Assembly (NCBI GenBank): GCA_038217285.1
Contig: JBBQPO010000120.1
Location: forward strand, 1-17,550
Source: Chthonomonadales bacterium
Lineage (GTDB): Bacteria; Armatimonadota; Chthonomonadetes; Chthonomonadales; Chthonomonadaceae
Length of the DNA stretch: 17,550 nt
Direction: 5' to 3'
Part shown: positions 1 to 16,393 of the stretch, piece after piece
Numbering within the stretch: the stretch's first letter is position 1
How the letters are laid out: every line of letters begins with the position of its first letter
Made by a program: the position numbers and the translations under genes
Notes under the pieces: generated by a model
Databases searched by the model: none
Told to the model about the DNA's origin: nothing
The model's input: the letters and a program-made list of their open reading frames with translations, nothing else

Positions 1-531
1 CGACTTCACCCAGGATTGATGTCGTACCGCGGGCAGGGCGGGTGGCTTTACGGGTACGAACGACCAGTGGAGTGGGCTGCGACTGGCGTGCGTCGAGGTG
101 ACCGCCGATGTGGTTGCGGCCAGAGTCGGCGCCGGACCCCAATACGCTCCGCTCTGTACCCACCTCGCCAGGACGCCGATCTCTGCCTGCGAGAGTGGCC
201 CGGACGGAGGCATCTTCAGCGCATTCCGATACCGAACGGCGTTAATGAGCAGGCTCGCATCTGGGCTGCCGGGAACCATCGCCGGTCCACGGTGCCCACC
301 GGCGACCATTGCAGCGCGCGAATCGAGCCGAAGTCCGCCATTCGAAAGCTTGGGACCATGGCAGTTGGCGCAACGATCGAGCACCAGGGGGCGGACGCTG
401 TTCTCGAAGAACGCAGCCGCGTCCTGATCTGGTGGCGTTTCGCTGAGTGAGGCGCCCACTGCGAGCGCGAACAGTGCCGACGAAAGGATGGTTGCTACCG
501 CGGGGGTTCCGTACCGCAGGCAAATGCGCAT
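1..531 (-). CDS. Planctomycete-type cytochrome c domain protein (PSCyt1, probably followed by DUF1549/DUF1553); 3' end runs off the window
   Basis: Not in the ORF track because there is no stop in the window. Manual translation from ATG at 531 (GGGAG upstream) is open to base 1: MRICLRYGTPAVATILSSALFALAVGASLSETPPDQDAAAFFENSVRPLVLDRCANCHGPKLSNGGLRLDSRAAMVAGGHRGPAMVPGSPDASLLINAVRY..KMPPSGPLSQAEIGVLARWVQSGA..HWSFVPVKPPALPAVRHQSWVKS. It has a signal peptide, a CxxCH haem motif (CANCH), the GGLRLD/MPP motifs and the HWSF segment that precedes DUF1549. Confidence 0.93.
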   Translation of the reverse strand, partial: MRICLRYGTPAVATILSSALFALAVGASLSETPPDQDAAAFFENSVRPLVLDRCANCHGPKLSNGGLRLDSRAAMVAGGHRGPAMVPGSPDASLLINAVRYRNALKMPPSGPLSQAEIGVLARWVQSGAYWGPAPTLAATTSAVTSTHASRSPLHWSFVPVKPPALPAVRHQSWVKS

Positions 532-555
532 TAACTGGGCTCCCGGCCATCATTC

Positions 556-2220
556 TCAATGCGATGGATTCGCAATTTTCGCCAGATTGATGTAGTCGTA
601 CGTTCCGCCATTATCTTCGGCGATTCCCTTTAACAGTCGCATACCGGGGAATCTCTCACCAAGCCCGAGCGCGAGCGTAGTGATTTTGATGCCGTGAGTA
701 TTCTTCTCCCGAATGTAATTACGGAGCGTCATGAAGTCACCGACCATACCATTCAGGTTGTTGTCGACTACCGGATCGCGGTTTGGCTCACCATCCGACA
801 TCAGGAAGATGTGCGTGATGCCGTTCATGTCGAAAGCAAGGTCCAGGGCGCCGGAGATATTGGTTCCATCCGCTACGTTGCGGTCTTCGACCCAGGCGCG
901 AGCATTCGCGACATTGGCGAGCGTCGCCGGAACGGAGTCGTCGCTAAAACACCTTGCGTGGCGCCAGAACACGACGATGTTGAATGTGTCGGACCGGCGC
1001 AGCTCACCGAGCGCCTTTTTCAGCGCCTCCTTCGCCTTGCCGAGCTTGTTTCCGTCACGCATGCTGCCGGAGACGTCCAGAGCATACACGATATGGATAG
1101 GCCCGTCTTCGCCGCCGGCACGGTGCGTACCGAATACCGCACCGCGGCCGAGCGCTCCATCGCGGGTCCCTGCGTTATCGCCGCCACCCAATAAGCCGGC
1201 GATGTTGCCGAACGGGACTCCGCGCATTCTTCCCGGCGGCGCGGCGTCATCGGCGCCTTCTCCGATGGCATTGCCGTGCCCGCGGCCGTAACCGTTGCCG
1301 TTACCACCGATTCCCGGCAGTTCGGCGCCGCGGCCTCGTCCGCCTCCGGGCGCCCTGGTACCGATCTCCGTGCCTTCGTCCGCGGCGCCGATTCCGCCCC
1401 CGCGCGCTCTCCTGAGGCTGCCGATCGCGACCGTTCCATCCGCTTGAGCCCCGATTCCCTTGCCTGTGCCCGAGCCGATACCTCCCTTTGACCCTGTTCC
1501 AAGTCCGCCACGCGTTCCGGGGCCGATGCCTGGCTTGTCGTCCGGTATGCCGTCGCCCAGTGGGTTGTCCCCGTTGACCGAGAGGATCGACCTTCCTCCT
1601 CCGCCGCCGATACGCGGAGCGACAATGGGAAGGTTCTCGCCGCCTCGCCCGCCTCCCGTGTAGAGCACGTCCTCCTTCGGCGATTCTGGCGCGGCCAGAC
1701 CATCGTGCCCGCCGGGACTAGGCGCGGGCGAGGGGGCGCCGCCGCCTTCTACGAGCGGGTGATTGTTTCGGGCGATACGCATCCTCAACGGCGCTGCAAG
1801 CGTCCTCTCGGGCAATGGGCTGGCAGCAGGCGCCTCCGCGGCTACCCTTTCGGGGAGCTCTACGGACGTCCGCTTCGGTCTGACCGTGGTCGGCAGAGGG
1901 TTGGTGCCGGCGACTGTGCGCTGAATACTTTGAGGTTCAAATGCGACACGTCGGATAGTCGCAACTTGAAAGGCTGCCACGGCAATCGGCCGCCGGCCAA
2001 CTGCGACGCTGTGCCTCGATGGAGGCTTAGTCGCCGCCCGCTTTGGTTCGGGCTTTGGTAGCGCCGGCTGAGCTGAAGGCTCAAACGCAACCTCGATGCT
2101 GGATGATTCCGGCTCGGTAGGCCGGTTGGTCGCTCCTCGCGTGACGACGGCAATGGTCAAATGCATCAGGATGGATACGACGCAGAATACCGGCAGCCAG
2201 AACCAGCGTTCGATGCGCAT
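556..2220 (-). CDS. Membrane-anchored protein with TonB/TolA-like N-terminus, Pro-rich and Gly-rich linker, and C-terminal vWA domain
   Basis: Start placed at ATG 2220 (AAGGA RBS upstream) rather than 2268. The N-terminal TM helix carries SxxxH (S16-ILM-H20), followed by a PALPKPEPK Pro-rich tract and a long Gly-rich tract. The vWA domain has a complete MIDAS: DVSGS, GTN, MSDG. Confidence 0.9.
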   Translation of the reverse strand: MRIERWFWLPVFCVVSILMHLTIAVVTRGATNRPTEPESSSIEVAFEPSAQPALPKPEPKRAATKPPSRHSVAVGRRPIAVAAFQVATIRRVAFEPQSIQRTVAGTNPLPTTVRPKRTSVELPERVAAEAPAASPLPERTLAAPLRMRIARNNHPLVEGGGAPSPAPSPGGHDGLAAPESPKEDVLYTGGGRGGENLPIVAPRIGGGGGRSILSVNGDNPLGDGIPDDKPGIGPGTRGGLGTGSKGGIGSGTGKGIGAQADGTVAIGSLRRARGGGIGAADEGTEIGTRAPGGGRGRGAELPGIGGNGNGYGRGHGNAIGEGADDAAPPGRMRGVPFGNIAGLLGGGDNAGTRDGALGRGAVFGTHRAGGEDGPIHIVYALDVSGSMRDGNKLGKAKEALKKALGELRRSDTFNIVVFWRHARCFSDDSVPATLANVANARAWVEDRNVADGTNISGALDLAFDMNGITHIFLMSDGEPNRDPVVDNNLNGMVGDFMTLRNYIREKNTHGIKITTLALGLGERFPGMRLLKGIAEDNGGTYDYINLAKIANPSH

Positions 2221-2357
2221 GGCAGTTTCCTTACTCGTACTTTGACTCTGCACACAAAGCCGGTCCAATTGCTTTCTTACACGGCAGTCACAACGGCTTC
2301 ATGAATCAGCGTGTCGCCGGCCCCGGTTCGGACTGTCCGGCAATACCGGTTTTCGCC

Positions 2358-2795
2358 CTATGTCCCCCGAACCGCATTTTGATCCAGTCGGGGGTTAGTC
2401 GGCAGGTTGATATGCTTGATGTTTGCCAGACTGATGATGTCCATCGCGTGACTTACTCTTCCGTAGGGGACGCCCTCGTCGCCCTTAACCAGGACGCGAA
2501 CGTCATGGTTCCTTCGATATGCCGATTGTAGTGTCTGCAGGAGCGCCGCGTCGGTAGGATTTGAACCATCCAGCCAGAACTTTCCATGACGGTCGATGCT
2601 GACGACAATGTCCTTCGGCGTTTCCGGCTTACCCTGGCGGGACGTCGACTCAGGGAGCTTCAGCGCAAATCCCGGCTGTTTCACAAAGGTGGTGGTGATC
2701 ATCATGATGATCAGCAGTGTCAGGGAGATGTCGATCAACGGGATCATGTTCATCTCGGCTACCGGATCGTCCTCGTTTCTTCCGCCGGCGTGCAT
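2358..2795 (-). CDS. exbD: ExbD/TolR family biopolymer transporter subunit
   Basis: AEMNMIPLIDISLTLLIIMMITT TM segment with the conserved Asp, and the periplasmic VLVKGDEGVPYGRV motif. The symbol is at family level only. Confidence 0.96.
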   Translation of the reverse strand: MHAGGRNEDDPVAEMNMIPLIDISLTLLIIMMITTTFVKQPGFALKLPESTSRQGKPETPKDIVVSIDRHGKFWLDGSNPTDAALLQTLQSAYRRNHDVRVLVKGDEGVPYGRVSHAMDIISLANIKHINLPTNPRLDQNAVRGT

Positions 2796-2796
2796 G

Positions 2797-3435
2797 TCAG
2801 GCCTCCTGTGGCTGTCGCGAGCGTGCGGAGCCGCTGCGGATCAGCGGAATTAATCGAGAAACGTGGCTTTGGACGTGCAGAAGCGATGCTTGGACATGTC
2901 CGAGGAGAAAGTTGTAGGCGATCACGCTCGGAATCGCGACCAGGAGCCCAAGTGCAGTGGCCGCGAGCGCCTCGGCTATATCGCCGGTAATTCTCTCGCT
3001 GCTCAGGCCCCCGACCTTCATCGTATCGAACGAGTGCATCACGCCAAGCACCGTTCCGAAGAGGCCGATAAACGGCGCGATGCTTCCGATAGTCGCGAGC
3101 GCATTCATGAAGCGTCGGAGTCGCATTCGCTGCAATGACAGAGCAATCTCGCTTGCCTGCCAGAGCGCGTTCTCCGTCGCGCCGCGCAGAGACGCCAGGG
3201 TTGCAACGATCTGGGCTACCGGAGCGACAGCCAGCGACGGGTCGCTCGGCGTATATTCCGCGCCGTTTTCAAGCGAATCCTTGATGATCTTAAATGCCGC
3301 GTCTTCGCGCTCTCGGATCCACCGCAGCACAAAGAGTCGCTCGAGCACGATCGCGAGTGCAAGCACCGAACAGACGCCGAGCGGCCAGGCGACAATCCGC
3401 GCCTTGACGAACAGGTCGATGAGATTGAAGGTCAT
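2797..3435 (-). CDS. exbB: MotA/TolQ/ExbB proton channel family protein
   Basis: LATIGSIAPFIGLFGTVLGVMHSF and IAEALAATALGLLVAIP motifs, three TM helices, and a 1-nt gap to exbD. The symbol is at family level only. Confidence 0.96.
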   Translation of the reverse strand: MTFNLIDLFVKARIVAWPLGVCSVLALAIVLERLFVLRWIREREDAAFKIIKDSLENGAEYTPSDPSLAVAPVAQIVATLASLRGATENALWQASEIALSLQRMRLRRFMNALATIGSIAPFIGLFGTVLGVMHSFDTMKVGGLSSERITGDIAEALAATALGLLVAIPSVIAYNFLLGHVQASLLHVQSHVSRLIPLIRSGSARSRQPQEA

Positions 3436-3498
3436 ACTTCTTTCCTGATACTACCGATAGATTTCCGTTTTGATCCCAATGGCCAGATTGAGTAACCG

Positions 3499-5670
3499 CT
3501 AACTCCCTTTGACGGCCTTGAGCGCGGCGAGCCGAGTCTTGGCGTTAGCGATCCGCATGTGCTTGGGATATCTGTCGACGAGAGCGGTGAGGCGAGCAAT
3601 GGCTTCGTCCTTCTTGTTTGACTTCGAGTAGGCGACGCCTGCCCAATACAGCGCCTCGGGAATGAACTCACCCGCGCTCTTGCTATCCGCCACGATATTG
3701 TACTCCGAGGCCGCTTCCACGAACTTATCCTGGCGATAGTATGCGGCTCCCAGATTGAATCGGCCCTCCAGCGTAAACGGGCTATTTGGAAAGTCGGTCA
3801 CGAGTTGCAGGTATTTCGCCTGGGCCTCGGGCCACTTCTCCGCCTTGCTCAGGGCGTCGCCCGATCGTAGGAGGGCTTGCGCGGCATATTCGCTCTTGGG
3901 AAAGTCGGTCGTGATCTTTTGCCAGACGGCCAGCGCGTCGTCACTCTTCTTCTGACGTTCGTAAGTCGTGGCCTGAACGTAAAGAACGGTTGCGATAGTC
4001 TCAGGAGAAGGTGTCTGTTCGAGAAGGGTTTTGCACCCTTCGAGCGCGGCGTCCCACTTCTGCTCCTCGAGGAGAGCCTGGACCAGAGCAAGTCGAGACT
4101 GTTCGACCTGCTCTTTAGGTCGATTAAATGTGAGCGCCGCGCTTGCCGCCTGTTCGGCTTTTGCCGGCCTTTTCAGGTCGAGATAGAGCCAGGCCAGGCT
4201 TGCCTGGACATCGCCTGCCCAGGGAGCGTCGGCCTTGAGACGCAGAGCTTCGCTATATGCCGCGACGGCAGAAGCCGCTTTCTTCTCAGCCTCGAATGTA
4301 ACGCCGAGAAGATATTGAGCCTCCGCCGCGACGTCCTTCTCCGGAGTTGATTCCAATAGCGCGCCAAGTCGTGTCTCCGCCTCCAGGTAACGGCTTGCGT
4401 GAATATCTTTACGCGCGGCTAGAATCGCTCCTCGTGTCTTCTCGCCCTTCATCTCCAGGAGAGCCTGCTTCGCCTCCGCTGCCTCAGGCGACTGCGGATA
4501 GCTCGTCACGACAGCCTGATATCCGAGTCTTGCGGCATCAGGCAGCTTTGCGTTTTGATAGGAATCCGCGGCGCGCAACTGTGCCTTGGATGCAAGAGAC
4601 TGCGCGGGAAAGCGCGAAACGTACCGGCTGAACTGTGCCGCTGCATCGGCGTGCTTGTTCATCGCCAGTGCGGCATTTCCGGCCCAGTAGAGTCCTTCCC
4701 CGGAAACGGCGGGCTCCAGCGACTTTGACGCGTCGACATAGGAGGTGTAAGCGAGGTCGTAATCCTTGAGGTGATAGCGGCAGTGTCCAAGACTCAACTG
4801 CGCTCGGAACCGCTGCGAGTCGCCGGGCGTAAGTCGACTGACGGCCGACTCGAGACGACCGATCGCGGCATCGTAATCATGCATCGCCAGGAGACACTGG
4901 ATCAGGCCGTCCTCTGCAGCGGCCTGCAGCTTCTGTCCCTTTTGCGTGGTTTTGAAGTCCTTCAGCAGGGATTCGAAGCCCGCTCGTGCCTCTGGAAGTC
5001 GATTGGCTTCAAGATCGAGCTGCGCGAGCATGAGTGCAGCCTGCGGCCTGTCCTCGCTCGCGGGATACCGCGCAATCAGGATACTGAAATCCGCCCGGGC
5101 CTCGTCTTTTTTCTTGAGCTTCAGTGCCGCGAGCCCCGCCCCGTAGCACGCTCCATCGGCGACGTCGCTCTTGCCGTAGCTGCGAACTATCGTATTGTAC
5201 GCCTGCTGCGCTAAGTCATACTTCTGCTGTTGGTAGTCTGCCTGCGCGAGCCAATACCAGGCGGCCGCCGCCTGCTCCGGTTTGAGCGTCCCCTTGACCG
5301 CAACCTCCAGCGCCGCCTCAGCTTTGTCGTATACGTGCGCGAACGTTGCGGCCTCGCCCAGGCCCAGATAGGCGAGTTGCGAAACGGAGGCTTCTTTCGA
5401 AGCGATCGCCTTTTCATAGGCCGCAATCGCCTGGGGATACTGTTTCAGTTCCGAGCGACATCGGCCCAGTGTAAACGCGACGGGCCCTGCCTTTGCATGA
5501 CGAGGCGTCGCCGCGAGGAACGCATCCAGCTTCAGTGCGGCCTCGGAGTACTTCTCCGCGTTGAAGAGCGCCGATGCGGCCGCGATCTGTTCGTCCGGCG
5601 TTTCAGCTCGGACGGTGGTAGTGGCAAGGCTCACGAGGAGACAGCAGACCAGAGGGCTGAACTTACTCAT
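3499..5670 (-). CDS. Secreted multi-TPR protein (CpoB/YbgF- or BamD-like repeats)
   Basis: Sec signal peptide (MSKFSPLVCCLLVSLATTTVRA) and GGGAG RBS. TPR helix pairs span the whole length, with recurring [YF]PxS turns (RYPAS, SYPQS, DFPKS, DFPNS) and the related RYPKH near the C-terminus. Confidence 0.93.
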   Translation of the reverse strand: MSKFSPLVCCLLVSLATTTVRAETPDEQIAAASALFNAEKYSEAALKLDAFLAATPRHAKAGPVAFTLGRCRSELKQYPQAIAAYEKAIASKEASVSQLAYLGLGEAATFAHVYDKAEAALEVAVKGTLKPEQAAAAWYWLAQADYQQQKYDLAQQAYNTIVRSYGKSDVADGACYGAGLAALKLKKKDEARADFSILIARYPASEDRPQAALMLAQLDLEANRLPEARAGFESLLKDFKTTQKGQKLQAAAEDGLIQCLLAMHDYDAAIGRLESAVSRLTPGDSQRFRAQLSLGHCRYHLKDYDLAYTSYVDASKSLEPAVSGEGLYWAGNAALAMNKHADAAAQFSRYVSRFPAQSLASKAQLRAADSYQNAKLPDAARLGYQAVVTSYPQSPEAAEAKQALLEMKGEKTRGAILAARKDIHASRYLEAETRLGALLESTPEKDVAAEAQYLLGVTFEAEKKAASAVAAYSEALRLKADAPWAGDVQASLAWLYLDLKRPAKAEQAASAALTFNRPKEQVEQSRLALVQALLEEQKWDAALEGCKTLLEQTPSPETIATVLYVQATTYERQKKSDDALAVWQKITTDFPKSEYAAQALLRSGDALSKAEKWPEAQAKYLQLVTDFPNSPFTLEGRFNLGAAYYRQDKFVEAASEYNIVADSKSAGEFIPEALYWAGVAYSKSNKKDEAIARLTALVDRYPKHMRIANAKTRLAALKAVKGS

Positions 5671-5817
5671 ACTCCCGGTACTCCGTAATTCTAAGGTAGA
5701 CCATTAGACCCGATTTCGACGGGATAGTTGCTGAATAAGCCCTCGCAGTCGAGCGCTCCACAATAGTATAGACGTCTGCTTCCGGCCGATTATCGCAGAA
5801 CGAATCCAACAAACAGA

Positions 5818-5845
5818 CAAGCAGGAGACAACTGTCTCCTGCTTG
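5818..5845. terminator. Perfect 13-bp inverted repeat; possible minus-strand intrinsic terminator or operator
   Basis: CAAGCAGGAGACA-AC-TGTCTCCTGCTTG. On the minus strand it is followed by TCTGTTTGTT. The repeat is certain; the function is inferred. Confidence 0.55.
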
Positions 5846-5871
5846 AGTCTACACTGATTCTTCGATCATTC

Positions 5872-5891
5872 GAGGTTCTTGCAAATGTCTG
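5872..5891. repeat. IS terminal inverted repeat (downstream of transposase)
   Basis: GAGGTTCTTGCAAATGTCTG, 16/20 identical to the reverse complement of 7247-7266. Confidence 0.75.
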
Positions 5892-6081
5892 CGATTTGGC
5901 AAGGACCCTTGATACCATCGTGTCCTGTATTGCGTTAAAATACAATACAGTCGTCAGTTTGTGTTGATCGACTACCGGTTTTGGCCAATTTGCCAATTGG
6001 GTGGCGTACAGAGCTATTGGAGAACCCCTGAGCGAGTCCACCAACCTATGAGTACCGTCGTTTTGACGCTCGATCCCGGGC

Positions 6082-7179
6082 TCAGCCGCTGAATATCTGC
6101 CGCAACGCGTCGGCAAACAATGCCATGACTCCGAACATGATATGCATGTGTGCCTTGGCATGTCCGCGTACACGCAGGTGGCGCAAGCCGAACTCATCCT
6201 TGAGGCGACTGTTACCGCGTTCCGCCGTTGATCGCTCGTTATAGCGGCGCAGACGGTCCGGATCCCAGGGCTTCGGATTGGAACGCCTTGGATTGGGATC
6301 GATCAGAGCGACGTGACCTAACTCTTGGCTTACCTTGTGAATCTGCTCGGCATCGTAGGCGCTGTCCATCAGGTCATAGAGTGAGGTTACTCGTAACGCC
6401 GTCGTTCGTGCCATTGGAATGGCAACCTGATTGTCGTGCAAGGACGCCGAGGTCGTCAGGACATTCAGCGGTACGCCGCCGTCAGCCCAATCGATGTGGG
6501 CTTTCCAACCGGTCCACGAGTGGGAATTGCCTTTCGAGTCCTTCTTGGTTCCGACGTTGCAGACACGCGGCAACTCGGCAATTGCCTCTTCTGCGGTCTG
6601 ATCGAGCTGCCTGACCAACCGGGTTGGCTCCTTTGGAGGCCCTTCCTCGCCCTTCTTCGGGCGACCGCGCTTTCGCTTGGGCTTAGGCGCCGCCTTCACT
6701 TTCTTGGCGGGTTTTTCACGGGCGTTGACTTCTGTGGAATCGCGGCTGACATGCATGACGACCTTCTCGCCGACATGCTCCCTGACCAACGCTTCGTGCA
6801 CACGATCCCCCAATCCCTCCTTGGCAAATTGGGCGAAGGCGCGTGAGAAGGTGGAAGCGCTGGGAATATTGCGCTGATACTCGAAGCCACAGAGCCGCCG
6901 CAACGTCGGCTGTAGACGCATCATCTCGATCAACAATTCGGTCGTCGGCAAATCGTAGACAGCCTTGGCAAGGAACGCGCGAGCGATCGACCGGCGATCG
7001 CTCTGTTTGCGACCCATCCATTGGGCGAAGGGACTGGCAACAAACTGTTCGATCGACACCACGTCGAAGATACGAACAAGCTGTTTGAGTTTCTCAGTGA
7101 GCGGCTCTTCAACAACGATCTCTAGATGAGGGAAAAGCGAGACTTGAAATCTGTGCCAGTATTCTGATAGAATGGACAT
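6082..7179 (-). CDS. DDE transposase (DUF772-like N-terminus plus DDE_Tnp_1-like domain)
   Basis: LRRLCGF..IPSASTFSR N-terminal motif, catalytic SRDST and LMDSAYD, and the YREK signature YNERSTAERGNSRLK. It also has a basic KRKRGRPKK insert and an AAGGAG RBS. Confidence 0.95.
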   Translation of the reverse strand: MSILSEYWHRFQVSLFPHLEIVVEEPLTEKLKQLVRIFDVVSIEQFVASPFAQWMGRKQSDRRSIARAFLAKAVYDLPTTELLIEMMRLQPTLRRLCGFEYQRNIPSASTFSRAFAQFAKEGLGDRVHEALVREHVGEKVVMHVSRDSTEVNAREKPAKKVKAAPKPKRKRGRPKKGEEGPPKEPTRLVRQLDQTAEEAIAELPRVCNVGTKKDSKGNSHSWTGWKAHIDWADGGVPLNVLTTSASLHDNQVAIPMARTTALRVTSLYDLMDSAYDAEQIHKVSQELGHVALIDPNPRRSNPKPWDPDRLRRYNERSTAERGNSRLKDEFGLRHLRVRGHAKAHMHIMFGVMALFADALRQIFSG

Positions 7180-7182
7180 GTA

Positions 7183-7231
7183 GGCTCCTTGTATCTTTTG
7201 GTTTCGTCACTTAAAGATTCAACAAGGAGCC
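7183..7231 (-). promoter_or_regulatory. Stem-loop covering the transposase RBS
   Basis: GGCTCCTTGT (7183-7192) pairs with ACAAGGAGCC (7222-7231), and ATCTTT (7193-7198) pairs with AAAGAT (7213-7218). On the minus strand the first arm is the Shine-Dalgarno sequence of the ATG at 7179. Confidence 0.75.
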
Positions 7232-7246
7232 GAAATCCCCTACCTC

Positions 7247-7266
7247 CAGACTTTTGCAATTTCCTC
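7247..7266. repeat. IS terminal inverted repeat (upstream of transposase)
   Basis: CAGACTTTTGCAATTTCCTC, the partner of 5872-5891. Confidence 0.75.
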
Positions 7267-7711
7267 TCTAGTATACGATAGTCGTTGGCTTCCTCACGAA
7301 ATAATAGACAGTTCTTAGAGAGTCGCCTTGTAGAATGGTCTGAACGCCCATCTACAGGGCATTTTCATGCCGTTGTCCGTCTTGAATTTGCGCCTTCCAT
7401 GGCTGTTATGAGTGTTAGGCCGCCGGCTCCTTCAACGACCGTTCAAATACGGCATCACGTGTACGTGGCAACCACCGGCCCGACGAAGGCAAGGTCAGGA
7501 CAAGCGAGCGAAGCAGCCCAGCGGCGAAATGATCGTTGGGTTGAAGTGGAAGCATGTCTGCTTGTCCGGAACTGGAGAGACCAACTGTAATCCTTTTCAG
7601 AGATCTTAGGACCAGTTCGATACGGTGAGAGCAGGATTGCCGACCTGGCTCGGGACCGCTGGGAATGAGCGCAGCGGGCCCCTGCCGGGCAGCTGAGCGA
7701 CGAGCGCATTC

Positions 7712-7840
7712 ATGAACGTCGTTGTCGGCATTGCAATGCCCTGGCTTCTCATCGTCTTTGGCTGTTGGCTTAACTTCCAGTTAGTCCGTCAGAACGGGCG
7801 GATTCTGCTGCGCATGGAGAGGCTGGAAGAGCAGGTGTGA
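7712..7840 (+). pseudogene. 42-aa remnant (or small membrane protein) matching the N-terminus of the redoxin gene at 16554
   Basis: Manual translation MNVVVGIAMPWLLIVFGCWLNFQLVRQNGRILLRMERLEEQV* aligns with MTVTWIVILAPWSFLAICCRLGFLLVRQNG/RILMRLDGIED at 16554 onward. No thioredoxin domain follows. The stop overlaps the next GTG (GTGA). Confidence 0.75.
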
Positions 7841-8709
7841 CGCCGTCGACGGCCCAGACACCTTCCAGGACCGACCCCTTCACATTCACTTCCCCATACG
7901 GTTTAAGCTCTGCCGGCGGTCTCGTCCAGGCGTCAGACGGTAACTTGTACGGCACGGCCATCTCAGGCGGTGAAAATGGATACGGTGCTATCTTCCAGGT
8001 CACGTCTTCGGGTGTGCTCAGGACCCTTTATTCGTTCATCGGATCCGATGGCGCTTCTCCTTTCGGCAATCTGATTCAGGCGCGCGACGGCAACCTCTAC
8101 GGCACTACAAGCGGCGGCGGTGCAAACAACGACGGAACGATTTTCAAGATGACGACTGGCGGAGCGCTCACGACTCTCTACAGTTTCGGCGCCGTCGATG
8201 TGAGCGGCAATTATGCCGACGGCGCCGTTCCGGACGCCGGCCTAATGCAGGCAACCGACGGCAACCTGTACGGTACAACGTTTCAGGGAGGCGCCGGTGG
8301 ATCAGGAACGATTTACAAGATTACGCCTTCCGGCACGTTCACTTCCCTGCACACTTTTCTTCCCTACGTACGGACAGTTCATGGGACAGGACGTAACCGT
8401 TGGTGGACCGTTCACCAGGTAGACGGGGCCAATCCCTACGGCGGCGTGGTTCAGGCAAGGGACGGCAACATCTACGGCACGACGGAGGCCGGCGACCTGC
8501 CCGAATCCAGAGTATCTGGCGGGTTGAACGGCTCAGGGTCTGTCTATAGAGTGACACTCGCCGGCGCTTTCACCAAACTCAATAGCTTTGGAGCAGGTTC
8601 AACCGGGGCCAATCCCGCTGCCAATCTGGTCCAGGCCTCGGACGGCAAGCTCTACGGCACGACGTCTACCGGCAGTGTTCTCGTCGCGATGTTGTCGTGT
8701 TACCGCTAA
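7837..8709 (+). CDS. GloVer (Gloeobacter/Verrucomicrobia) tandem-repeat beta-propeller-like protein, probably truncated at both ends
   Basis: Five copies of a [LV]xQAxDGx[LI]YGT core; the first four continue into a GT/AIFK-type strand and an LYSF-type motif. There is no signal peptide, and the fifth repeat breaks off after LYGTTS. Confidence 0.85.
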   Translation: MTPSTAQTPSRTDPFTFTSPYGLSSAGGLVQASDGNLYGTAISGGENGYGAIFQVTSSGVLRTLYSFIGSDGASPFGNLIQARDGNLYGTTSGGGANNDGTIFKMTTGGALTTLYSFGAVDVSGNYADGAVPDAGLMQATDGNLYGTTFQGGAGGSGTIYKITPSGTFTSLHTFLPYVRTVHGTGRNRWWTVHQVDGANPYGGVVQARDGNIYGTTEAGDLPESRVSGGLNGSGSVYRVTLAGAFTKLNSFGAGSTGANPAANLVQASDGKLYGTTSTGSVLVAMLSCYR

Positions 8710-9527
8710 CGACCGCTCTTGCCGCCGTGAGTCCGTCAGCCGCCGAAGAATTAACTGTCCTGGAGTCGAATGTCGAAGTCAAAACGCCGCACGGCGCCTG
8801 CGATGCTGCCTTCATCCATCCGGAGAAGGGCTCCTACCCTGGCGTCTTGATCTGGCCGGACGCATTCGGACTCCGACCCGCCATGCGCGACATGGGCAAG
8901 CGCCTTGCTGCCGAGAGGTACTCGGTGCTTGTTCCGAATCCATTCTATCGCGCCGGAGCCGCAACGACTTTCGATCTCAACACAAAGACGTTCAGTTTCC
9001 AGAACCCGGACGACATGGCGAGACTGCGCAAGCTAATGGGTGGAATCAACGCGCCCGGCGCAGCGGAAAAGGACGCTTCGGCATACGTCACCTTCCTCGA
9101 CGCGCAGCGATCCGTAGATAAGTCAACGAAGATCGGGACACAGGGTTACTGCATGGGCGGCCCGCTGGTCCTTAAGACTGCAGCGGCCCTGCCGGACCGC
9201 GTCGGGGCCGGTGCTTCCTTTCACGGCGGAGGTCTTGTAACGGACCGGCCGGACAGTCCGCACACGCTTGCGCCCAGGATCAAGGCGCGAATCTACATCG
9301 GCATCGCATCGAACGACGACATGCGCCAGCCGGACGCGAAAGACAAGCTTCGCGACGCCTTCGCCGCCGCCAAGGTGGCGGCCGAGATTGAAGTCTATAG
9401 AGGTCTGCACGGTTGGTGCGTACCGGATATGCCGGTCCAACCGGATGGCAAGCCACTCTACAACAAGCCTGACGCGGAGAAAGCGTGGGCCAGGCTGCTC
9501 GCGCTGTACAAAGCGGCGCTTGTCTGA
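8697..9527 (+). CDS. Dienelactone hydrolase family protein (5' end probably truncated)
   Basis: PGVLIWPDAFGLRP motif, nucleophile GYCMGG, ASFHGG, acid NDD and catalytic His in GLHGW. An in-frame SRRDVV Tat-like motif lies upstream of the first available start codon. Confidence 0.92.
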   Translation: MLPLTTALAAVSPSAAEELTVLESNVEVKTPHGACDAAFIHPEKGSYPGVLIWPDAFGLRPAMRDMGKRLAAERYSVLVPNPFYRAGAATTFDLNTKTFSFQNPDDMARLRKLMGGINAPGAAEKDASAYVTFLDAQRSVDKSTKIGTQGYCMGGPLVLKTAAALPDRVGAGASFHGGGLVTDRPDSPHTLAPRIKARIYIGIASNDDMRQPDAKDKLRDAFAAAKVAAEIEVYRGLHGWCVPDMPVQPDGKPLYNKPDAEKAWARLLALYKAALV

Positions 9528-9747
9528 GGGAATGAAAGACCCTGACCCATCGCCTTCATTGAAGGAACTGCGGCCGGTATCGCCGAAAAGCCTTTTGCTA
9601 CCCTCCCCGCGTTTGAACGGTTTGCGCAGGCATACATGGCTCCGCCGATTGTTGCGACTCTCGGTCGACCCCGTTGACGTCTGTCGAATACGATTGATGG
9701 GCCATGAGCGAGTCAAAGTGGAAGTCGATGCCGGCGGAAATACGGAC

Positions 9748-11613
9748 ATGGACACGACGCTGCAAAAATGCCGGATCGAACTATTCGGCGGGCTGTGCCT
9801 CGATGTGGGTGGTCTACGGGTCACCCGCTTTCGCACGAGGAAGACGGCGGAGCTGCTGGCATACCTTGCGTACTACAGTCGGCGAACGCACCCGCGAGAA
9901 GTGCTGATCGAGCTTCACTGGCCCGAGTGCGATTCGGACTCCGGTCGTCACAATCTCAGTATGGCCCTCTCCTCACTTCGTGCGGTTCTGGACCCTCCGG
10001 AACGATCGAATGAAGTCCGGCTGGTGGCAGACCGTTATACGGTGGGGCTGAATCCGGTCGGTCTTGCAACAGATGTCGCCGAATTCGAGGAAGCTATCCG
10101 TTCGACGTCGCAAGCGCGAACGGACGGGGATCGAATTCACTTGTTGGAGAGGGCGGTCAGTCTCTATTCCGGCGAGCTCTTGCCGGGATACTACCAGGAT
10201 TGGATTTTTCCCGAACAGCAGCGTCTCGAGGAGACGTATTCTCAGGGCTTGCGGCAGTTGATTCTCCATCTGAACCGTGCAGGAGACTTCGTTCGTGCGC
10301 TCAAGTATGCCCTGATCTGTCTGACTATCGACCCCTTCGGAGAAGAGGCTCATAGGGACGTGATGTCCCTCTATGTCGCGACGGGTCAACCGGAGGGCGC
10401 GCTTCGGCAATACCGGAAACTGGAACAAAAGCTCAGGCAGGAGCTGCAGACGGAACCCGAAGAGGAGACTCAAGCGCTCTTTAATGCCATCGAATCCAGC
10501 GCGCTCAAGGTCGATCGAGCTATCGCCGGCTCGCGGACCGACCGGGGTGATTTGCAGCTGTCCCAGCCGGCTGTGCCATCAATTGCTCACGATGATTGGC
10601 TGGAGCCAGTAGGGGGAGCTGTTCCGCTCGACTCGAGGTTTTATCTAACGCGCCCTACGGACGCGGAATTCCACGCCGCAATAGCGCGTCATGACAGTAT
10701 CGTACTCGTGAAGGGATCTCGCCAGGTGGGCAAAACGTCTCTCCTGGCGCGCGGTCTCGATCGCGCAAGGCGGGCAGGCTTCGGTGTCGTACTGAGCCAT
10801 TTTCAGCTCTTGAATTCATCGCACTTCGAGTGTGCGGACGCCCTTCTCCTGGCGCTCGCGCAATCGATCGCGGAACAGCTCAATCTCGAAGCGGATCCCG
10901 CCGACCATTGGGACCCGCGCCGGGGCGCCACTCCCAGCTTTCGACGATATCTGCGTCGTGAGGTGCTCAGCAATCTCTCGGCGCCGATGGTCTGGGGGCT
11001 GGATGGCGTAGATCTTCTCTTTTCCTGCTCCTTCGGCAGCGAGATATTCGGCCTGTTCCGATCCTGGTACGATGCGCGAGCGCTCGATCCGCAAGGGCCG
11101 TGGGCCGGGCTGACACTCGCTATGGCTTACTCGACGGAAGCTCATTTGTTTATCTCGGACGTCAACCAATCGCCGTTCAACGTCGGGACTCGACTCTCTC
11201 TGGACGACTTCACCCTAGCGCAAGTGTTAGACTTGAACTGGCGATACGGCTCGCCTCTCAGAGATCAGGATGCCGTGGCGCGCTTTTACGGCCTGGTCAG
11301 CGGGCATCCTTACCTGGTAAGAAGAGGGCTTCATGAAATGGCCGTTCATGGTGTCGGGATAGCATCGTTTGCGGCGCGCGCGAGCAGCGACGACTGGATT
11401 CTTAGCGACCACCTCCATAGGATCGCGGGCCTCGTCGCCAAAGACGCAGAGCTCCGGGCCAGTGTTCAAGCGGTTTTGAACGGAGCTCCGTGTCCGACTC
11501 GCGAGAGCTTCTATCGGCTCCGAAGCGCTGGGGTTCTCGTTGGAGATTCAATCCACGACGCCCGATTTCGCTGCCCCCTCTATGCCGATCATCTTCGGGC
11601 ATATCTCGCGTGA
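9748..11613 (+). CDS. SARP-like regulator: winged helix + BTAD + AAA_35-like STAND NTPase
   Basis: Start placed at ATG 9748 because family similarity begins at CRIELFGGL. wHTH segment KTAELLAYLAY..REVLIELHWPE..NLSMALSSLR; BTAD segment TDVAEFE..LYSGELLPG..DPFGEEAHRDVMSLY..ALRQYRKL; NTPase motifs GAVPLDSRFYLTRPTD, Walker A GSRQVGKTS, QSPFNVG and GHPYL. Confidence 0.9.
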   Translation: MDTTLQKCRIELFGGLCLDVGGLRVTRFRTRKTAELLAYLAYYSRRTHPREVLIELHWPECDSDSGRHNLSMALSSLRAVLDPPERSNEVRLVADRYTVGLNPVGLATDVAEFEEAIRSTSQARTDGDRIHLLERAVSLYSGELLPGYYQDWIFPEQQRLEETYSQGLRQLILHLNRAGDFVRALKYALICLTIDPFGEEAHRDVMSLYVATGQPEGALRQYRKLEQKLRQELQTEPEEETQALFNAIESSALKVDRAIAGSRTDRGDLQLSQPAVPSIAHDDWLEPVGGAVPLDSRFYLTRPTDAEFHAAIARHDSIVLVKGSRQVGKTSLLARGLDRARRAGFGVVLSHFQLLNSSHFECADALLLALAQSIAEQLNLEADPADHWDPRRGATPSFRRYLRREVLSNLSAPMVWGLDGVDLLFSCSFGSEIFGLFRSWYDARALDPQGPWAGLTLAMAYSTEAHLFISDVNQSPFNVGTRLSLDDFTLAQVLDLNWRYGSPLRDQDAVARFYGLVSGHPYLVRRGLHEMAVHGVGIASFAARASSDDWILSDHLHRIAGLVAKDAELRASVQAVLNGAPCPTRESFYRLRSAGVLVGDSIHDARFRCPLYADHLRAYLA

Positions 11614-11760
11614 GTCGCCGACCCGCTTGCAGTCTTACGCGCTCCAAAAGTCGCCGCGCAGCACGTCGCTGAACGACGGTTTCCTCCCTGCACGCAGATA
11701 TAGCCGCTTCCGCTCGGCGAGACCTTCGCAGCGAGTGGGAGGCGCCCCATGCGTTCGCTT

Positions 11761-11804
11761 GTGAGAGTTGCCGTGAGATTCTGGAGAGGCCGCTCGTGTA
11801 GAAT
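11761..11804 (+). promoter_or_regulatory. Candidate promoter with GAGA-type direct repeats and a -10 box
   Basis: GTGAGA (11761), GTGAGA (11773), GAGAGG (11784), 9 nt, then TAGAAT (11799-11804). The same spacing occurs at 16428-16459. Confidence 0.45.
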
Positions 11805-11846
11805 GAACCTGACTATGTGATCGGAAACAGCGGGGAGAACGCAGCC

Positions 11847-14800
11847 ATGGGCGGAGTGCGATCCGGCTTTTACGTAACAGGAGGAAGCTTGCGGGCCGAC
11901 ACCCGATCCTACGTCCAGCGGGATGCCGACGAAATCCTGTTTTCCTCCCTCATGAACGGCGAGTTTTGCTACATCCTCACGGCCAGACAGATGGGCAAAT
12001 CGTCGCTGATGGTGCGGACCTCCGTCCGACTGCGCGAGGTGGACGTTCATGTGGCCGTCCTGGACCTTACCGCGCTAGGACAGAACCTCAATGCAGAACA
12101 GTGGTACTACGGCTTGGTCTGCATGTTGGGGGAGCGGTTTGGTCTGGAAGACAAACTTGACGCCTACTTTCTGAAGCACGAGGGCCATGGACCGCTTCGT
12201 CGTTTCATGGCCGCGCTGCGCTATGTGCTCCTTCCTAGCTGCGCGGGCCGAGTGGTCATCTTTGTCGATGAAATCGATATAGTCCGCAGTCTGCCCTTCT
12301 CCACCGACGAGTTCTTCGCGGCGATACGCGAGTGCTACAATCGGCGCACCGAAGACGCGGAGATGGATCGCCTGACTTTTTGCCTTCTTGGCGTCGCAGC
12401 CCCGATCGACCTGATTGAAGATACGCGTATGACTCCGTTCAACATCGGTCGCCGGATCGAGTTGGATGACTTTACGTCCGACGAGGCAGCGCCGCTGTCG
12501 CGCGGATTGTCACCGGAGCACGAAGTAACCGCGCGTGGGACGGAGCAGCGGCGACGGTCACTTCTGGAACGCATTCTCCACTGGACGGGAGGACATCCTT
12601 ATCTGACCCAGCGGCTATGCCTGGCGGTCGCCGACTGGGGGGAAGTGAGCGATCACGCCTCGCCCACACCTAACGCCCGCCATCCCACGCGCTCGGACGT
12701 GGATCGTCTCTGCACGGAGCTATTCATCTCGCATCGGGCGCAGGAGCGCGATGATAACCTGACCTTCGTGCGCGATCGGCTGCTCTACGGCGAAAGCGAC
12801 GCCGCGACGCTACTGGAACTATACCGTCAAGTTTGGAGCGGTAAGCGTATCCCGGACGACGATACCGACCGGCTCGCAGGCGTGCTGCGACTCGCCGGCA
12901 TCGCACGCTCGGATCACGGACGGCTCCGCGTTCGGAACCGCATCTATGAGCGCGTCTTCAACTCGCGCTGGGTCCGTAGACACCTGCCGGGCGCGGAGCT
13001 GCAGCGGCAGAAGGCGGCTTATCGTCTTGGCTGGGCGCGCGCACTGACCGCTTCGACCATGGTAGTAGCGGCTACCGGAGTTCTTGCAGTCGCTGCCTTT
13101 CGTTACGCCGCTTTGGCGCGGAGCGAGTCGCGGATTGCGCGCGACGAATCGCGCGCGGAGCGCCGGAGCCTCTATGTCGCCGATATGAATCTGGCCGGAC
13201 GCGCGGTGGAGCTGCACAATCTGGCGCGGGCAAGGGAGCTGCTTGAGCGGCATCGACCCACCAAAGACGACGAGGAGGATCTGCGTGGATTTGAGTGGCG
13301 GCTGCTCTGGGCAGAATGCAGGCCCGGCTGGCTGTATACTCTCGGCGGAGGCGGCGGTCCCGTCATAACAGTTGCGTACTCTCCGGACGGCCGGACCATC
13401 GCTTCCGGCTGCGCCGATGGTACTATTCAACTGTGGGATGTAGTGTCAAGAATGCCAACTGCTCACTGGAAGGCGCACTCCAAACTCGTCGATTTCACCG
13501 GAACGTTGCACTACTCACCGGACGGATCGCTTCTCGTTTCCGCCGGATGGGACCACGCGGTCAAGCTCTGGAATACCCGCACCTATGGGCTGGAGGCGAG
13601 TCTTCTTGCCGATTCCGGAGTCGCTACGGATGCCGAATTCTCGCCCAATGCCCGTCGTCTGGCGACCTGCGGAGACAGCGGCATCGTCCGGATATGGGAT
13701 ACCTATTCACATAAGCGACTCGAGCCGTTTCGATCTCAATCGAAATTCCTGAACTGCGTGCGACATTCTCCGGATGGGAGATTGATCGCTGCGGGCAGCG
13801 ACGATGGGATCGTCAGGCTCTGGAATGTCCGCTCTCACAGGATCGTTCGTAGCCTGCCCGGAGTGAAGTCCATCGAATCCATGGCGTTTTCGCACGATGG
13901 AAAAACCCTCGCCGTCGGACAATTCGCCAATTCGATTGATCTTTGGGACGTGGCCACCGGAAGGCAAACGCGCACGCTTAGCGGACATGCCGCCGATGTG
14001 GCATTTCTGGAATATTCATCCGATGGCAAGCTTCTAGCCACCGCCAGCAAGGACGGGACTGCGAGGATATGGGACGCGGCGTCCGGTAAAGCGGTTCGCG
14101 AGCTCTACGGTCACAGGGGCAGCGTCGATTCGGTCGGGTTTTCGCCGGATCACTCCCGAGTCGCAACCGCGAGCGAAGATGGCTCGATCGCGATCTGGGA
14201 CACCGGACCACAGCCCGATCGAAGCTCTCTGAGGCTACAACAGCGCCCGATCTTAGGGCTGGTCTTCTCTCCGAACGGCAAACTCCTGGCCGCCGGAGGC
14301 GCGGGCAGCGTGAGGTACCTGATCGATGTTGATGCCAGACACGTGATCGCGCGATTGCAGGGCAATTCGGATACGACACAGTCGGTAGCCTTTTCCAGGG
14401 ATGGTCGCACCCTTGCCGCGGCGACCGGACACGTGAACGGGGGCAACGCATCTTGTCCTATTGAACTCTGGGATGTGCTCAGGCATCGACTTGTACGCGA
14501 ACTGGTCGGCCATGAGGGAGCCATATCATGCGTCAAGTATTCCCCGGACGGCTCGATGCTTGCCGCGTGCTGCAGCGACGGCGCGGTGAGTATTTGGGAA
14601 CCGGAAGCAAGCAGACCGAAATATACAATCCATCTGGATAAGCGCGAGACCATTGAGGCGGCGTTTTCGCCCGACGGAGCAGTTCTTGCCCTGGCGGGCG
14701 GCGGTTTCGACCATGTAGAGCTATGGGATGTCGCCGGCCGCCGCAAAATTCGAGACATACAGGCGTCCGATTCCTCAACCATCTCTCCGGTCTTCTCGCC

Positions 14801-15143
14801 GAACGGCAAACTGCTGGCATTCTCGGACTTTACCGGTGTTCGAATAGTGGACCTGGACGGTATGGTTGAGAGGGCCGTTCTCAGTGGCCATGTTCGAAGC
14901 GCCCGGGCGATCGCGTTCTCTCCCGACAGCAAGACGCTAGCGAGCTGCGGAATCGACGGAACCACAAGGCTTTGGAACCTGGCAACTATGTCGGAGGTGT
15001 GGGTCTTCCGCGGCGATGGGAGCGAATTCTCGTCCATTGCATTCTCTCCCGATGGGAATCACCTTGCCGCCGGGTGCGCGGATGGAACCATTCGGTTTTG
15101 GGATGCAGAGCCATCTGGAATAACGGACTCCGGCCGCCAGTGA
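11847..15143 (+). CDS. AAA_35-like STAND NTPase + TM helix + 14 WD40 repeats
   Basis: ATG 11847 preferred over GTG 11817 because GGGGAG precedes it. Motifs FYVTGGSL..SYVQRDAD, Walker A ARQMGKSS, Walker B VIFVDEID, TPFNIG and WTGGHPYLTQRLC. A hydrophobic helix (ALTASTMVVAATGVLAVAAF) precedes 14 counted WD40 repeats, probably two 7-bladed propellers. Confidence 0.95.
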   Translation: MGGVRSGFYVTGGSLRADTRSYVQRDADEILFSSLMNGEFCYILTARQMGKSSLMVRTSVRLREVDVHVAVLDLTALGQNLNAEQWYYGLVCMLGERFGLEDKLDAYFLKHEGHGPLRRFMAALRYVLLPSCAGRVVIFVDEIDIVRSLPFSTDEFFAAIRECYNRRTEDAEMDRLTFCLLGVAAPIDLIEDTRMTPFNIGRRIELDDFTSDEAAPLSRGLSPEHEVTARGTEQRRRSLLERILHWTGGHPYLTQRLCLAVADWGEVSDHASPTPNARHPTRSDVDRLCTELFISHRAQERDDNLTFVRDRLLYGESDAATLLELYRQVWSGKRIPDDDTDRLAGVLRLAGIARSDHGRLRVRNRIYERVFNSRWVRRHLPGAELQRQKAAYRLGWARALTASTMVVAATGVLAVAAFRYAALARSESRIARDESRAERRSLYVADMNLAGRAVELHNLARARELLERHRPTKDDEEDLRGFEWRLLWAECRPGWLYTLGGGGGPVITVAYSPDGRTIASGCADGTIQLWDVVSRMPTAHWKAHSKLVDFTGTLHYSPDGSLLVSAGWDHAVKLWNTRTYGLEASLLADSGVATDAEFSPNARRLATCGDSGIVRIWDTYSHKRLEPFRSQSKFLNCVRHSPDGRLIAAGSDDGIVRLWNVRSHRIVRSLPGVKSIESMAFSHDGKTLAVGQFANSIDLWDVATGRQTRTLSGHAADVAFLEYSSDGKLLATASKDGTARIWDAASGKAVRELYGHRGSVDSVGFSPDHSRVATASEDGSIAIWDTGPQPDRSSLRLQQRPILGLVFSPNGKLLAAGGAGSVRYLIDVDARHVIARLQGNSDTTQSVAFSRDGRTLAAATGHVNGGNASCPIELWDVLRHRLVRELVGHEGAISCVKYSPDGSMLAACCSDGAVSIWEPEASRPKYTIHLDKRETIEAAFSPDGAVLALAGGGFDHVELWDVAGRRKIRDIQASDSSTISPVFSPNGKLLAFSDFTGVRIVDLDGMVERAVLSGHVRSARAIAFSPDSKTLASCGIDGTTRLWNLATMSEVWVFRGDGSEFSSIAFSPDGNHLAAGCADGTIRFWDAEPSGITDSGRQ

Positions 15144-15201
15144 CGGCGCGCGATGCGCCCTTTCAGCATCAGATTGACGGATCGAATTGATCGCTGCATA
15201 G

Positions 15202-15263
15202 TATAATTGTTGCTCACTCGCCTTAGCGGTTCGTAGCTGTTCGTATCTTTTCGTACCTGGAGG
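15202..15263 (+). promoter_or_regulatory. TATAAT -10 box, triple 10-bp repeat and GGAGG RBS upstream of the DUF1559 gene
   Basis: TATAAT at 15202-15207 with no canonically spaced -35. TTCGTAnCT occurs at 15230, 15240 and 15250, and GGAGG at 15259-15263. Confidence 0.5.
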
Positions 15264-15269
15264 TTTGCC

Positions 15270-16148
15270 GTGGAGCGCGCCTATCGTGCATTCACCCTGA
15301 TAGAGCTCCTTGTGGTCATCGCAGTGATTGCCATCGTTGCGGCGCTGCTCTTTCCCGTCTTCGCGCGCTCGCGATCCGTGGCGCGCAAGACCGTGTGCAT
15401 ATCCAATTTCAAGCAGATGGGCACGGCGGTCCTGATGTACACCCAGGACTACGATGAGACCTATCCCATCGCCAGTTGGCAGTTCATTGATGCTAAATGT
15501 AACAATCCTCCGCCGATTCTCCAGAATCTACTCTCCGTTTATGGTATAAGCGACAAGATTTGGAACTGCCCCGAGGATCCCGCGACCGAACGGCGCCGAG
15601 AGGTGAGCCTGTGCGACGACGTCTCTCCGCCTACGAATTCGACGCAGGCCATGCGCGATGCCGCCTGGCGCGCCGATTTCGCCTATAACTGGCAGTACTT
15701 TGCGCCCGTCGGAAAGGACTGCGACGGATTTAAGGGCACAGACCCCGTCTCCGTGCCGGTATCGATGGTTTCTCGTCCTGCAGAGAGCATCTACGCGACT
15801 GACAGCGTCTGGTGGCGTCTTCCGGACGGAACCCCCGACGGCGGCGGCGAGGCCGCCGTCGATCCGCCATGCCGTTATGACGCAAACGGCACAGACACAT
15901 TCACTTACCCGATAATCCCGGGCTGCCGCGGCCGAGCAGTGTGGGGTGGATGGCTGCCGAGCAAGCCGCTGGATTGGCAGGTATACGGCGGCGTCTACCC
16001 TTGGCACCTCAACATGGTGAACGTGGCCTGGGCCGACGGCCACGTGAAGACCCGGACCCTCGGCGCCATCTCCGCCGGCTGCGAAGTAAGGGACAGCTTC
16101 GGGGGCAGGATAACCGACCCCGAAAAATACCTCTGGGATCTCAACTGA
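15270..16148 (+). CDS. DUF1559-family prepilin-type N-terminal cleavage/methylation protein with H-X9-DG motif
   Basis: RAFTLIELLVVIAVIAIVAALLFPVFA, CISNFKQMGTAVLMYTQDYDETYP, WNCPED and C-terminal HLNMVNVAWADGHVK. GGAGG RBS precedes the GTG. Confidence 0.95.
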   Translation: MERAYRAFTLIELLVVIAVIAIVAALLFPVFARSRSVARKTVCISNFKQMGTAVLMYTQDYDETYPIASWQFIDAKCNNPPPILQNLLSVYGISDKIWNCPEDPATERRREVSLCDDVSPPTNSTQAMRDAAWRADFAYNWQYFAPVGKDCDGFKGTDPVSVPVSMVSRPAESIYATDSVWWRLPDGTPDGGGEAAVDPPCRYDANGTDTFTYPIIPGCRGRAVWGGWLPSKPLDWQVYGGVYPWHLNMVNVAWADGHVKTRTLGAISAGCEVRDSFGGRITDPEKYLWDLN

Positions 16149-16393
16149 CGCTTCGCAACGCGTCTGCCGATCCAGCGCCTACACTAAACGGCATCTCAAT
16201 ACCTCAAGCTCGCATCGTCTTCGCTCTCCGCAAGTGTTGCGATACGCCCGTTGCAGCACCCCATAATCTGATCTTCCCGACCGGGGCGATCCTTTCGCAT
16301 CCGCACGGGGCAGAATCCATATTCCAGCTCGAAAAACCAGACTCACCGACCCTGGCCACCTATGGCCAAACGAATCAAGCAAAGCCCGCCTCT

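Follow-up and report, generated by a model that had tools for sequence, protein, structure and literature searches.

To our knowledge, the routes by which energy of the inner membrane is delivered to the outer envelope are well understood only for Ton and Tol. 'Motor-driven force transducers' carrying a vWA (von Willebrand factor A) domain, of unknown function, have additionally been proposed from genome data (Mol Biol Evol 2025;42:msaf138, PMC12204202). The cassette described there, with Tichowtungia aerotolerans as seed, comprises a gene for a tetratricopeptide repeat (TPR) protein, a tolQ-like gene, two tolR-like genes and a vWA protein anchored by an SHLS-type helix, and in an AlphaFold3 model of the same authors the His of the transmembrane (TM) helix contacts the motor. 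In this study, a comparable locus was analysed in a 17,550-nucleotide stretch ("the window": contig JBBQPO010000120.1, positions 1 to 17,550) of a Chthonomonadales bacterium (assembly GCA_038217285.1). Its minus strand carries four closely packed genes in the order TPR, ExbB/TolQ, ExbD/TolR and a fourth gene, here called X. Probably they constitute a single operon, the products of which would build a Ton/Tol-type envelope machine powered by protons, an Armatimonadota variant of the vWA force transducer. Going by the account of the vWA cassette in PMC12204202, the architecture and the motor-coupling reading were already published in 2025; what differs here is the host phylum, Armatimonadota and not the Planctomycetes-Verrucomicrobia-Chlamydiae (PVC) group, the single ExbD, a conserved Gly-rich module and the swapping of heads on one stalk. 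The genes and the parts of X are as follows.

3499..5670, minus strand: TPR gene, putative secreted scaffold (723 amino acids (aa); Pfam TPR families and NCBIfam tol_pal_ybgF)
2797..3435, minus strand: ExbB/TolQ-family stator subunit (212 aa; PF01618, 5e-28)
2358..2795, minus strand: ExbD/TolR-family subunit (145 aa; PF02472, 7e-25; single copy)
556..2220, minus strand: X, putative TonB/TolA-like transducer with vWA head (554 aa; last gene of the cassette)
2131..2211, minus strand: TM helix at residues 4-30 of X, containing S16 and H20 (helix in the AlphaFold2 (AF2) model, predicted local distance difference test score (pLDDT) 78-96)
2077..2097, minus strand: putative D-box-like or motor-box-like strand of X, I42-E-V-A-F-E-P48 (conserved alternating hydrophobic pattern)
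1747..2070, minus strand: Pro-rich variable spacer of X, residues 51-158 (16% Pro)
1105..1746, minus strand: Gly-rich module of X, residues 159-372 (214 aa; 33% Gly)
583..1104, minus strand: vWA head of X with intact metal-ion-dependent adhesion site (MIDAS), residues 373-546 (VWA_3 at residues 376-542, 1.2e-11)

The exbD start lies one base past the exbB stop. The start of X was placed at the ATG at 2220, with a Shine-Dalgarno-like AAGGAA 7 nt upstream; the open reading frame (ORF) as listed begins at the TTG at 2268. MRxERW forms the N-terminal start in all X homologues and matches the ATG at 2220, from which all residues of X, such as S16 and H20, are numbered.

Eighty-one full-length X homologues, 41-67% identical, were aligned, and all residue counts for X refer to this alignment. 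S16 is retained in 80 of the homologues and H20 in 78, a retention beyond chance at this level of identity. A putative strand, residues 42-48, lies ten residues after the helix. Position 42 is I, M, L or V, position 44 is V or I and position 46 is L, F or M in all 81 sequences, and P48 is retained in at least 90% of them. According to PMC10907165, the D-box of TonB (QPISVTMVTPAD) binds the ExbD dimer via strand recruitment, and the element is termed the 'motor box' in PMC12204202. The strand of X is found at the same place and with the same alternating pattern as this D-box. It is followed by the Pro-rich spacer, which varies in sequence (mean top-residue frequency 0.36; 2 of 108 columns at least 90% conserved) and in length (94-183 residues). 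At the other end of the protein, the vWA head has a mean top-residue frequency of 0.60 (41 of 174 columns at least 90% conserved; length 164-174), and each of its MIDAS residues D382, S384, S386, T453 and D476 is present in all 81 homologues. The AF2 model built with this alignment shows a confident vWA fold (pLDDT about 90-98), with all residues from 80 to 370 below 50. No match to TonB_C (PF03544/TIGR01352) or to a TolA family was found in X by Pfam and NCBIfam scans. An initial annotation, made from the letters of the window, had described X as a TonB/TolA-like SxxxH helix joined to a vWA domain with an intact MIDAS in place of TonB_C; the alignment and the domain scans agree with it on each of these points, and the SxxxH spacing persists in the homologues. 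By analogy, X likely acts as a motor-coupled transducer in the way that TonB and TolA do.

The best Foldseek matches of the vWA head were ITIH1 (6fpy, 6e-13) and Bacteroides BatB (3ibs, 1e-10), and BatB together with an aerotolerance-related protein (3ibs, 4jdu) gave the best bacterial matches. This would suit an arrangement without motor coupling, in which X is a static anchored vWA protein with a TPR partner, similar to BatA/BatB/BatC, while ExbB and ExbD serve another partner such as the TonB of this genome. The Bat (aerotolerance) system indeed shares a membrane-anchored vWA domain with MIDAS and a TPR partner with the cassette, and some SxxxH-vWA relatives of X have no motor genes nearby. 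The cassette differs from it in having motor genes and TonB-like N-terminal motifs, and a static anchor would leave the conserved S16/H20 and the D-box-like strand unexplained. The order of the genes is moreover strictly kept across families, and TonB has its own adjacent ExbBD. Bat operons, which we take to contain MoxR and DUF58 genes and to lack ExbBD, find no counterpart here: a MoxR or DUF58-type neighbour is not conserved in the 24 loci compared and is absent from the window ORFs scanned. A static, Bat-like X is therefore considered quite unlikely.

Both motor subunits of the cassette were assigned to their families, ExbB by PF01618 (MotA_ExbB; 97.8 bits, cut-off 22.9) and ExbD by PF02472 (88 bits, cut-off 25.4). 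P121, T128 and T160 of ExbB are present in all 27 cassette homologues and E155 in 26 of them; the TM Asp of ExbD, D22, is retained in 26 of 26. We take these residues to match the Thr/Glu and Asp positions of the E. coli proteins; the motifs noted by the initial annotation are retained in the cassette homologues at these counts. The genome carries a second cassette on contig C75 and a TonB-linked motor on contig C320. The window ExbB is 49% identical to its C75 paralogue and 22% identical to the TonB-linked ExbB; for ExbD the values are 43% and 25%, respectively. The two cassettes are accordingly close to each other (43-49%) and far from the canonical Ton motor (22-25%), and a grouping of these subunits with a Ton or Tol system whose TonB or TolA partner is encoded elsewhere was not observed. 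None of the NCBIfam equivalog cut-offs of tolQ, exbB, tolR and exbD was reached by the cassette motor. An assignment to Tol or Ton by comparing the tolQ/tolR with the exbB/exbD scores was dropped as non-discriminating, because even the TonB-linked motor scores higher with tolQ/tolR.

The cassette has in common with the TonB system the SxxxH helix, the putative D-box-like strand and the Pro-rich spacer, and its motor likewise contains the TM Asp and the ring residues Thr and Glu. It differs in that X has no TonB_C and no TonB-dependent receptor adjoins it, the true TonB locus being that on C320; neither a TonB-dependent receptor nor a TolB or Pal family turned up in the window ORFs that were scanned. 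With the vWA cassette as described in PMC12204202 it shares the Ser/His TM helix, a putative strand after the helix, the Pro-rich domain II and the vWA domain replacing TonB_C, and also the upstream TPR gene and the TolQ/TolR-type motor genes. Of the SHLS-type helix motif, Ser and His were the positions scored in X. The text of PMC12204202 contains none of the words 'PA14', 'glycine', 'DUF4159' and 'lectin', and 'Armatimonad' is absent from its vWA passages and from one supplementary file, other supplements of the article possibly listing more. No related work on a PA14 domain together with ExbB or ExbD was found in a literature search.

Domain II of the published cassette is about 100 residues long, whereas X adds a conserved Gly-rich module of 214 aa after it. 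With a mean top-residue frequency of 0.69, 72 of 214 columns at least 90% conserved and a length of 203-237 residues (standard deviation 6), this module is the best-conserved part of X, above the vWA head. The initial annotation had correctly noted a Pro-rich and Gly-rich composition; its view of the Gly-rich stretch as a linker has to be revised, because such conservation is not that of an ordinary linker. The conserved non-Gly motifs are located around SILSVxNPLA, ELPGTGG, GYGRG and PFGDxxGLL. AF2 predicted the module as disordered (pLDDT below 50), and current structure prediction does not reach far enough to explain it. No Pfam family matched the module alone at E <= 10. A match of its sequence to fimbrial proteins in the PDB (best E 0.066) was taken as chance. 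Complex prediction of TPR residues 23-723 with X residues 159-372 gave an ipSAE of 0.02 in both runs, which is no evidence either way. The module is also present in paralogues of X that carry a PA14 domain as head.

The conservation of the cassette was examined in three sets of loci. In the 20 loci selected for a full-length X match (set 1), the order TPR-ExbB-ExbD-X was found in 17, two others are cut by contig ends and one has X followed by ExbB; a single ExbD is present at every locus. The exceptional locus (L051, G163:C28, 1477-3869) is the second locus of one genome, and its contig begins 1.5 kb upstream. Among the 15 loci selected for partial matches (set 2), eight have ExbB-ExbD with an anchor, and five of these include a TPR gene; of the three without, one shows ExbB-ExbD and an anchor at a contig start and two have ExbB-ExbD with a vWA anchor and no TPR match. 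The eight loci selected by a weaker TPR match (set 3), with TPR proteins of 930-1070 aa, all have TPR-ExbB-ExbD. An SxxxH or TxxxH anchor comes next in all seven in which the DNA continues, the contig of the eighth ending right after exbD. The TPR gene is first in the cassette in 17/20, 5/15 and 8/8 loci of the three sets. The gene order given by the initial annotation and the linkage of X to exbB, exbD and a TPR gene therefore hold across several Armatimonadota families. When the ORFs of 24 loci, one of them that of the window, were all clustered, no further conserved neighbour was found beyond the genus; a secreted protein of about 680-690 aa after X is conserved within the genus of the window only.

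The heads carried by these anchors are not always vWA domains. In set 3, five anchors end in PA14 (one of them with TxxxH) and one in DUF4159 (9e-20), and the C-terminal end of one is cut by a contig end. The DUF4159-headed anchor (L077:3102-5438, minus strand) follows TPR-ExbB-ExbD in one Armatimonadota family. A stalk profile reaching from the TM helix to the end of the Gly-rich module was built from 17 sequences and searched against 1.84 billion representatives. It retrieved 103 proteins at E <= 1e-3; tightening the cut-off to E <= 1e-30 left 37. The 39 matches of at least 440 aa carry vWA (34) or PA14 (5) heads and none other.

The genome of the window (6.2 Mb, 459 contigs, 95% complete) has three MotA_ExbB loci, namely the window (C120), C75 and C320. 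The second cassette, on C75, combines TPR, ExbB and ExbD with a PA14-headed and then a vWA-headed X paralogue, tandem transducers on one motor:

L041: 3581-10385, and 10389-12458: C75 cassette, with a secreted protein (about 690 aa) after it

In the stalk tree, the PA14-headed and vWA-headed tandem paralogues of the genus form sister groups (support 92/94), which fits duplication and then head exchange. The window copy is placed on a long branch among vWA-headed stalks from other families. The C320 locus is a canonical ExbB-ExbD-TonB set (TonB_C 3e-13, C320:1852-2079), followed by an 860-aa barrel like those of TonB-dependent receptors. This barrel (L070: 2034-4613) was recognised by TonB_dep_Rec_b-barrel (6e-23), although the 95%-complete genome yielded no Plug domain; searches of it for TolB_N and for the OmpA family (Pal) gave 0 matches each. 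Two Omp85 proteins are encoded. Because of the Ton locus on C320, the two Omp85 proteins and the lack of TolB_N and OmpA matches, the organism appears to be a diderm with a Ton system and without Tol-Pal, to which the cassettes would be extra motors. The separate Ton locus and the missing TolB_N and OmpA families also mean that the cassette belongs to neither Ton nor Tol-Pal, as the initial annotation had proposed. The initial annotation had mentioned the PVC bacteria as possible carriers of similar gene clusters; the host here is not of that group but a member of the Armatimonadota, and every relative that bears a name is Armatimonadota, Chthonomonadaceae or Chthonomonadales.

The cassette is patchily distributed. 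Of 401 genomes of the phylum, 26 encode the cassette-type TPR protein (E <= 1e-130), that of the window included, and within the family to which the window belongs it was found in 10 of the 31 remaining genomes; weaker matches (1e-45 to 1e-98) are present in another 24 of the 401. Two full copies of the cassette were found only in the genome of the window. In the genus, the remaining four genomes contain the C75-type copy only, with 65-69% nucleotide identity to the window, and since they lack the window copy, this cassette may have been acquired or retained singly.

The TPR protein itself has a signal-peptide-like N-terminus followed by an all-helical solenoid of 37 helices, predicted by AF2 with a mean pLDDT of 91 (residues 1-21 disordered). 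A hydrophobic leader is present at the N-terminus of all 19 TPR homologues taken from the loci. Besides many Pfam TPR families, the NCBIfam model tol_pal_ybgF matched with 8.8e-66 in seven stretches. Foldseek retrieved generic long TPR solenoids, and no specific structural relative of the model came out of this search.

The match to the CpoB/YbgF TPR model raises the question of a Tol-Pal substitute, a housekeeping link between proton-motive force and outer-membrane constriction or stability, in which the TPR protein would act as CpoB and the vWA domain would hold on to an anchor in the outer membrane or the wall. With Tol-Pal and CpoB the cassette indeed shares an operon that combines a TolQR-like motor with a TolA-like anchor and a TPR protein of CpoB type. 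The missing TolB_N and OmpA families in a genome encoding Omp85 are compatible with such a replacement, as is the Fig. 7 legend of PMC12204202, which reports curated Tol-Pal in Gracilicutes only. Several differences speak against it. Neither TolB nor Pal/OmpA is found in the genome searched and X has no TolA domain III, while CpoB/YbgF consists of an N-terminal trimerisation coiled coil and one C-terminal TPR domain (about 260 aa), in contrast to the 723-aa solenoid with seven copies of the TPR unit. The PRK10803 CpoB model reached 77.6 bits on the TPR protein against a cut-off of 383, and the CpoB N-terminal family was not found in Pfam and NCBIfam scans. The non-discriminating tolQ/tolR scores give no help to this explanation either. 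A housekeeping function is further at odds with the patchy spread, with two copies here of which that of the window is absent from the rest of the genus, and with heads that swap among vWA, PA14 and DUF4159. A Tol-Pal substitute is thus regarded as unlikely.

The adhesin-type heads could also point to surface motility or adhesion of the Agl-Glt kind, in which the motor would move a vWA or PA14 head that engages the substratum via outer-membrane partners. Both are typical adhesin domains, and gliding is suggested as one possibility by the authors of PMC12204202. In Foldseek, the TPR model loosely matches a scaffold protein that belongs to the flagellar motor of Campylobacter and is periplasmic (9hmf_K, TMq 0.36, root-mean-square deviation 14), a similarity generic for TPR proteins. 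The comparison with Agl-Glt made in the initial annotation stands as an analogy and goes no further, the GltC model NF033756 reaching 18.1 bits against a cut-off of 450. Among the conserved neighbours of the cassette there is no gene for an outer-membrane protein, a secretin or adhesin export, and the sequence of X shows no visible means of crossing the outer membrane. Because a conserved outer-membrane partner is missing, a gliding machine is disfavoured and can be called very unlikely.

In the preferred reading, a proton-driven envelope machine, the parts would cooperate as follows. Gene order, domains, conservation and synteny were computed; motor docking, force transmission and the class of ligand are what we infer. 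As in the solved Ton and Tol motors, ExbB and ExbD would assemble in a 5:2 ratio into an inner-membrane motor that is also a proton channel. The TM helix of X with S16 and H20 would dock on the rim of this motor, and the strand 42-48 would be offered to the periplasmic ExbD dimer. The Pro-rich spacer and the conserved Gly-rich module would let X span the periplasm, so that its metal-dependent vWA head would meet a ligand of the outer envelope. The secreted TPR solenoid is a candidate periplasmic partner or scaffold. The most likely function would be an accessory one, in which energy is spent to capture or pull a ligand that is part of the envelope or arrives from outside, possibly a protein carboxylate in the case of vWA and a glycan in that of PA14. 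This is preferred to a core housekeeping role, because the adhesin or lectin heads, the patchy spread and the duplication favour an accessory system. The initial annotation had presented the locus as a module driven by proton-motive force that grips and pulls a substrate via the vWA domain; the TonB/TolA-like N-terminus and the synteny on which it relied were recovered, and the gripping or pulling is, as before, something we infer.

A number of observations weigh against this reading. H20 is replaced by Gln in three of the 81 homologues, and the AF2 monomer of X shows no strand at residues 42-48. Only one ExbD is encoded here, in contrast to the heterologous pair of the cassette in PMC12204202; as the paper states this pair as 'often' present and for the PVC group only, the single ExbD is better taken as a variant than as an exclusion. 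The likeness to the Tichowtungia family is one of architecture, as described in that article, and all members are known from sequence and models. No motor gene was found in the fetched flanks of seven of the 15 set 2 loci, so that the linkage of X to the motor, although strong, is not obligatory. Five of these motor-less loci (L060, L062, L064, L067 and L068) carry SxxxH-anchored vWA proteins, which qualifies the recurrence of the cassette order in the neighbourhood survey. These five proteins bear a D-box-like strand, and the N-terminus of that of L067 is very like X. Possibly these are orphan transducers relying on a motor from another locus. PMC12204202 mentions that many tonB genes are likewise unlinked to motor genes.

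A more far-reaching version of the proton-driven machine, possible though doubtful at present, would see in the Armatimonadota, as diderm Terrabacteria without Tol-Pal, the bearers of their own Ton/Tol-like branch. The stalk would then be a platform for interchangeable vWA, PA14 lectin and DUF4159 heads and the Gly-rich module, instead of being a spacer, a new elastic or partner-bound element of force transduction. Together they would form a grapple, powered by protons, that seizes glycans or envelope polymers and works without TonB-dependent receptors. If the proton-driven reading is true, a third class of system with adhesin or lectin heads would widen the range of what proton-driven 5:2 motors power. 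With the variant from Armatimonadota, the proposal of 2025 is extended to a diderm phylum of the Terrabacteria and gains head swaps on one stalk and a conserved Gly-rich segment. Compact four-gene cassettes with a single ExbD would be convenient for reconstitution.

Outside the cassette, one further element was noted immediately upstream of it.

5818..5845, minus strand: terminator-like hairpin (12-bp stem, 7 GC pairs, T-rich tail; consensus match only)

This hairpin (5845-5818) sits between the cassette and an IS5/IS1182-type transposase gene, and it would close off the transposase region. The IS5/IS1182-family DDE transposase (6082-7179, minus strand), with an ORF at 5790-6197 on the same strand, lies directly upstream of the cassette. 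At the other end, a gene with a PSCyt1 ('Planctomycete cytochrome C') domain (1-531, minus strand) begins 24 nt past the stop of X and may be co-transcribed with it; it is not a conserved neighbour across the other cassette loci. Two regulator-like genes are located on the plus strand, one at 9268-11613 (781 aa; Trans_reg_C, BTAD and AAA_35) and one at 11817-15143 (1108 aa; AAA_35 and many WD40 repeats). They are followed at 15270-16148 on the plus strand by a pilin-like protein with a prepilin-type N-methylation motif and DUF1559.

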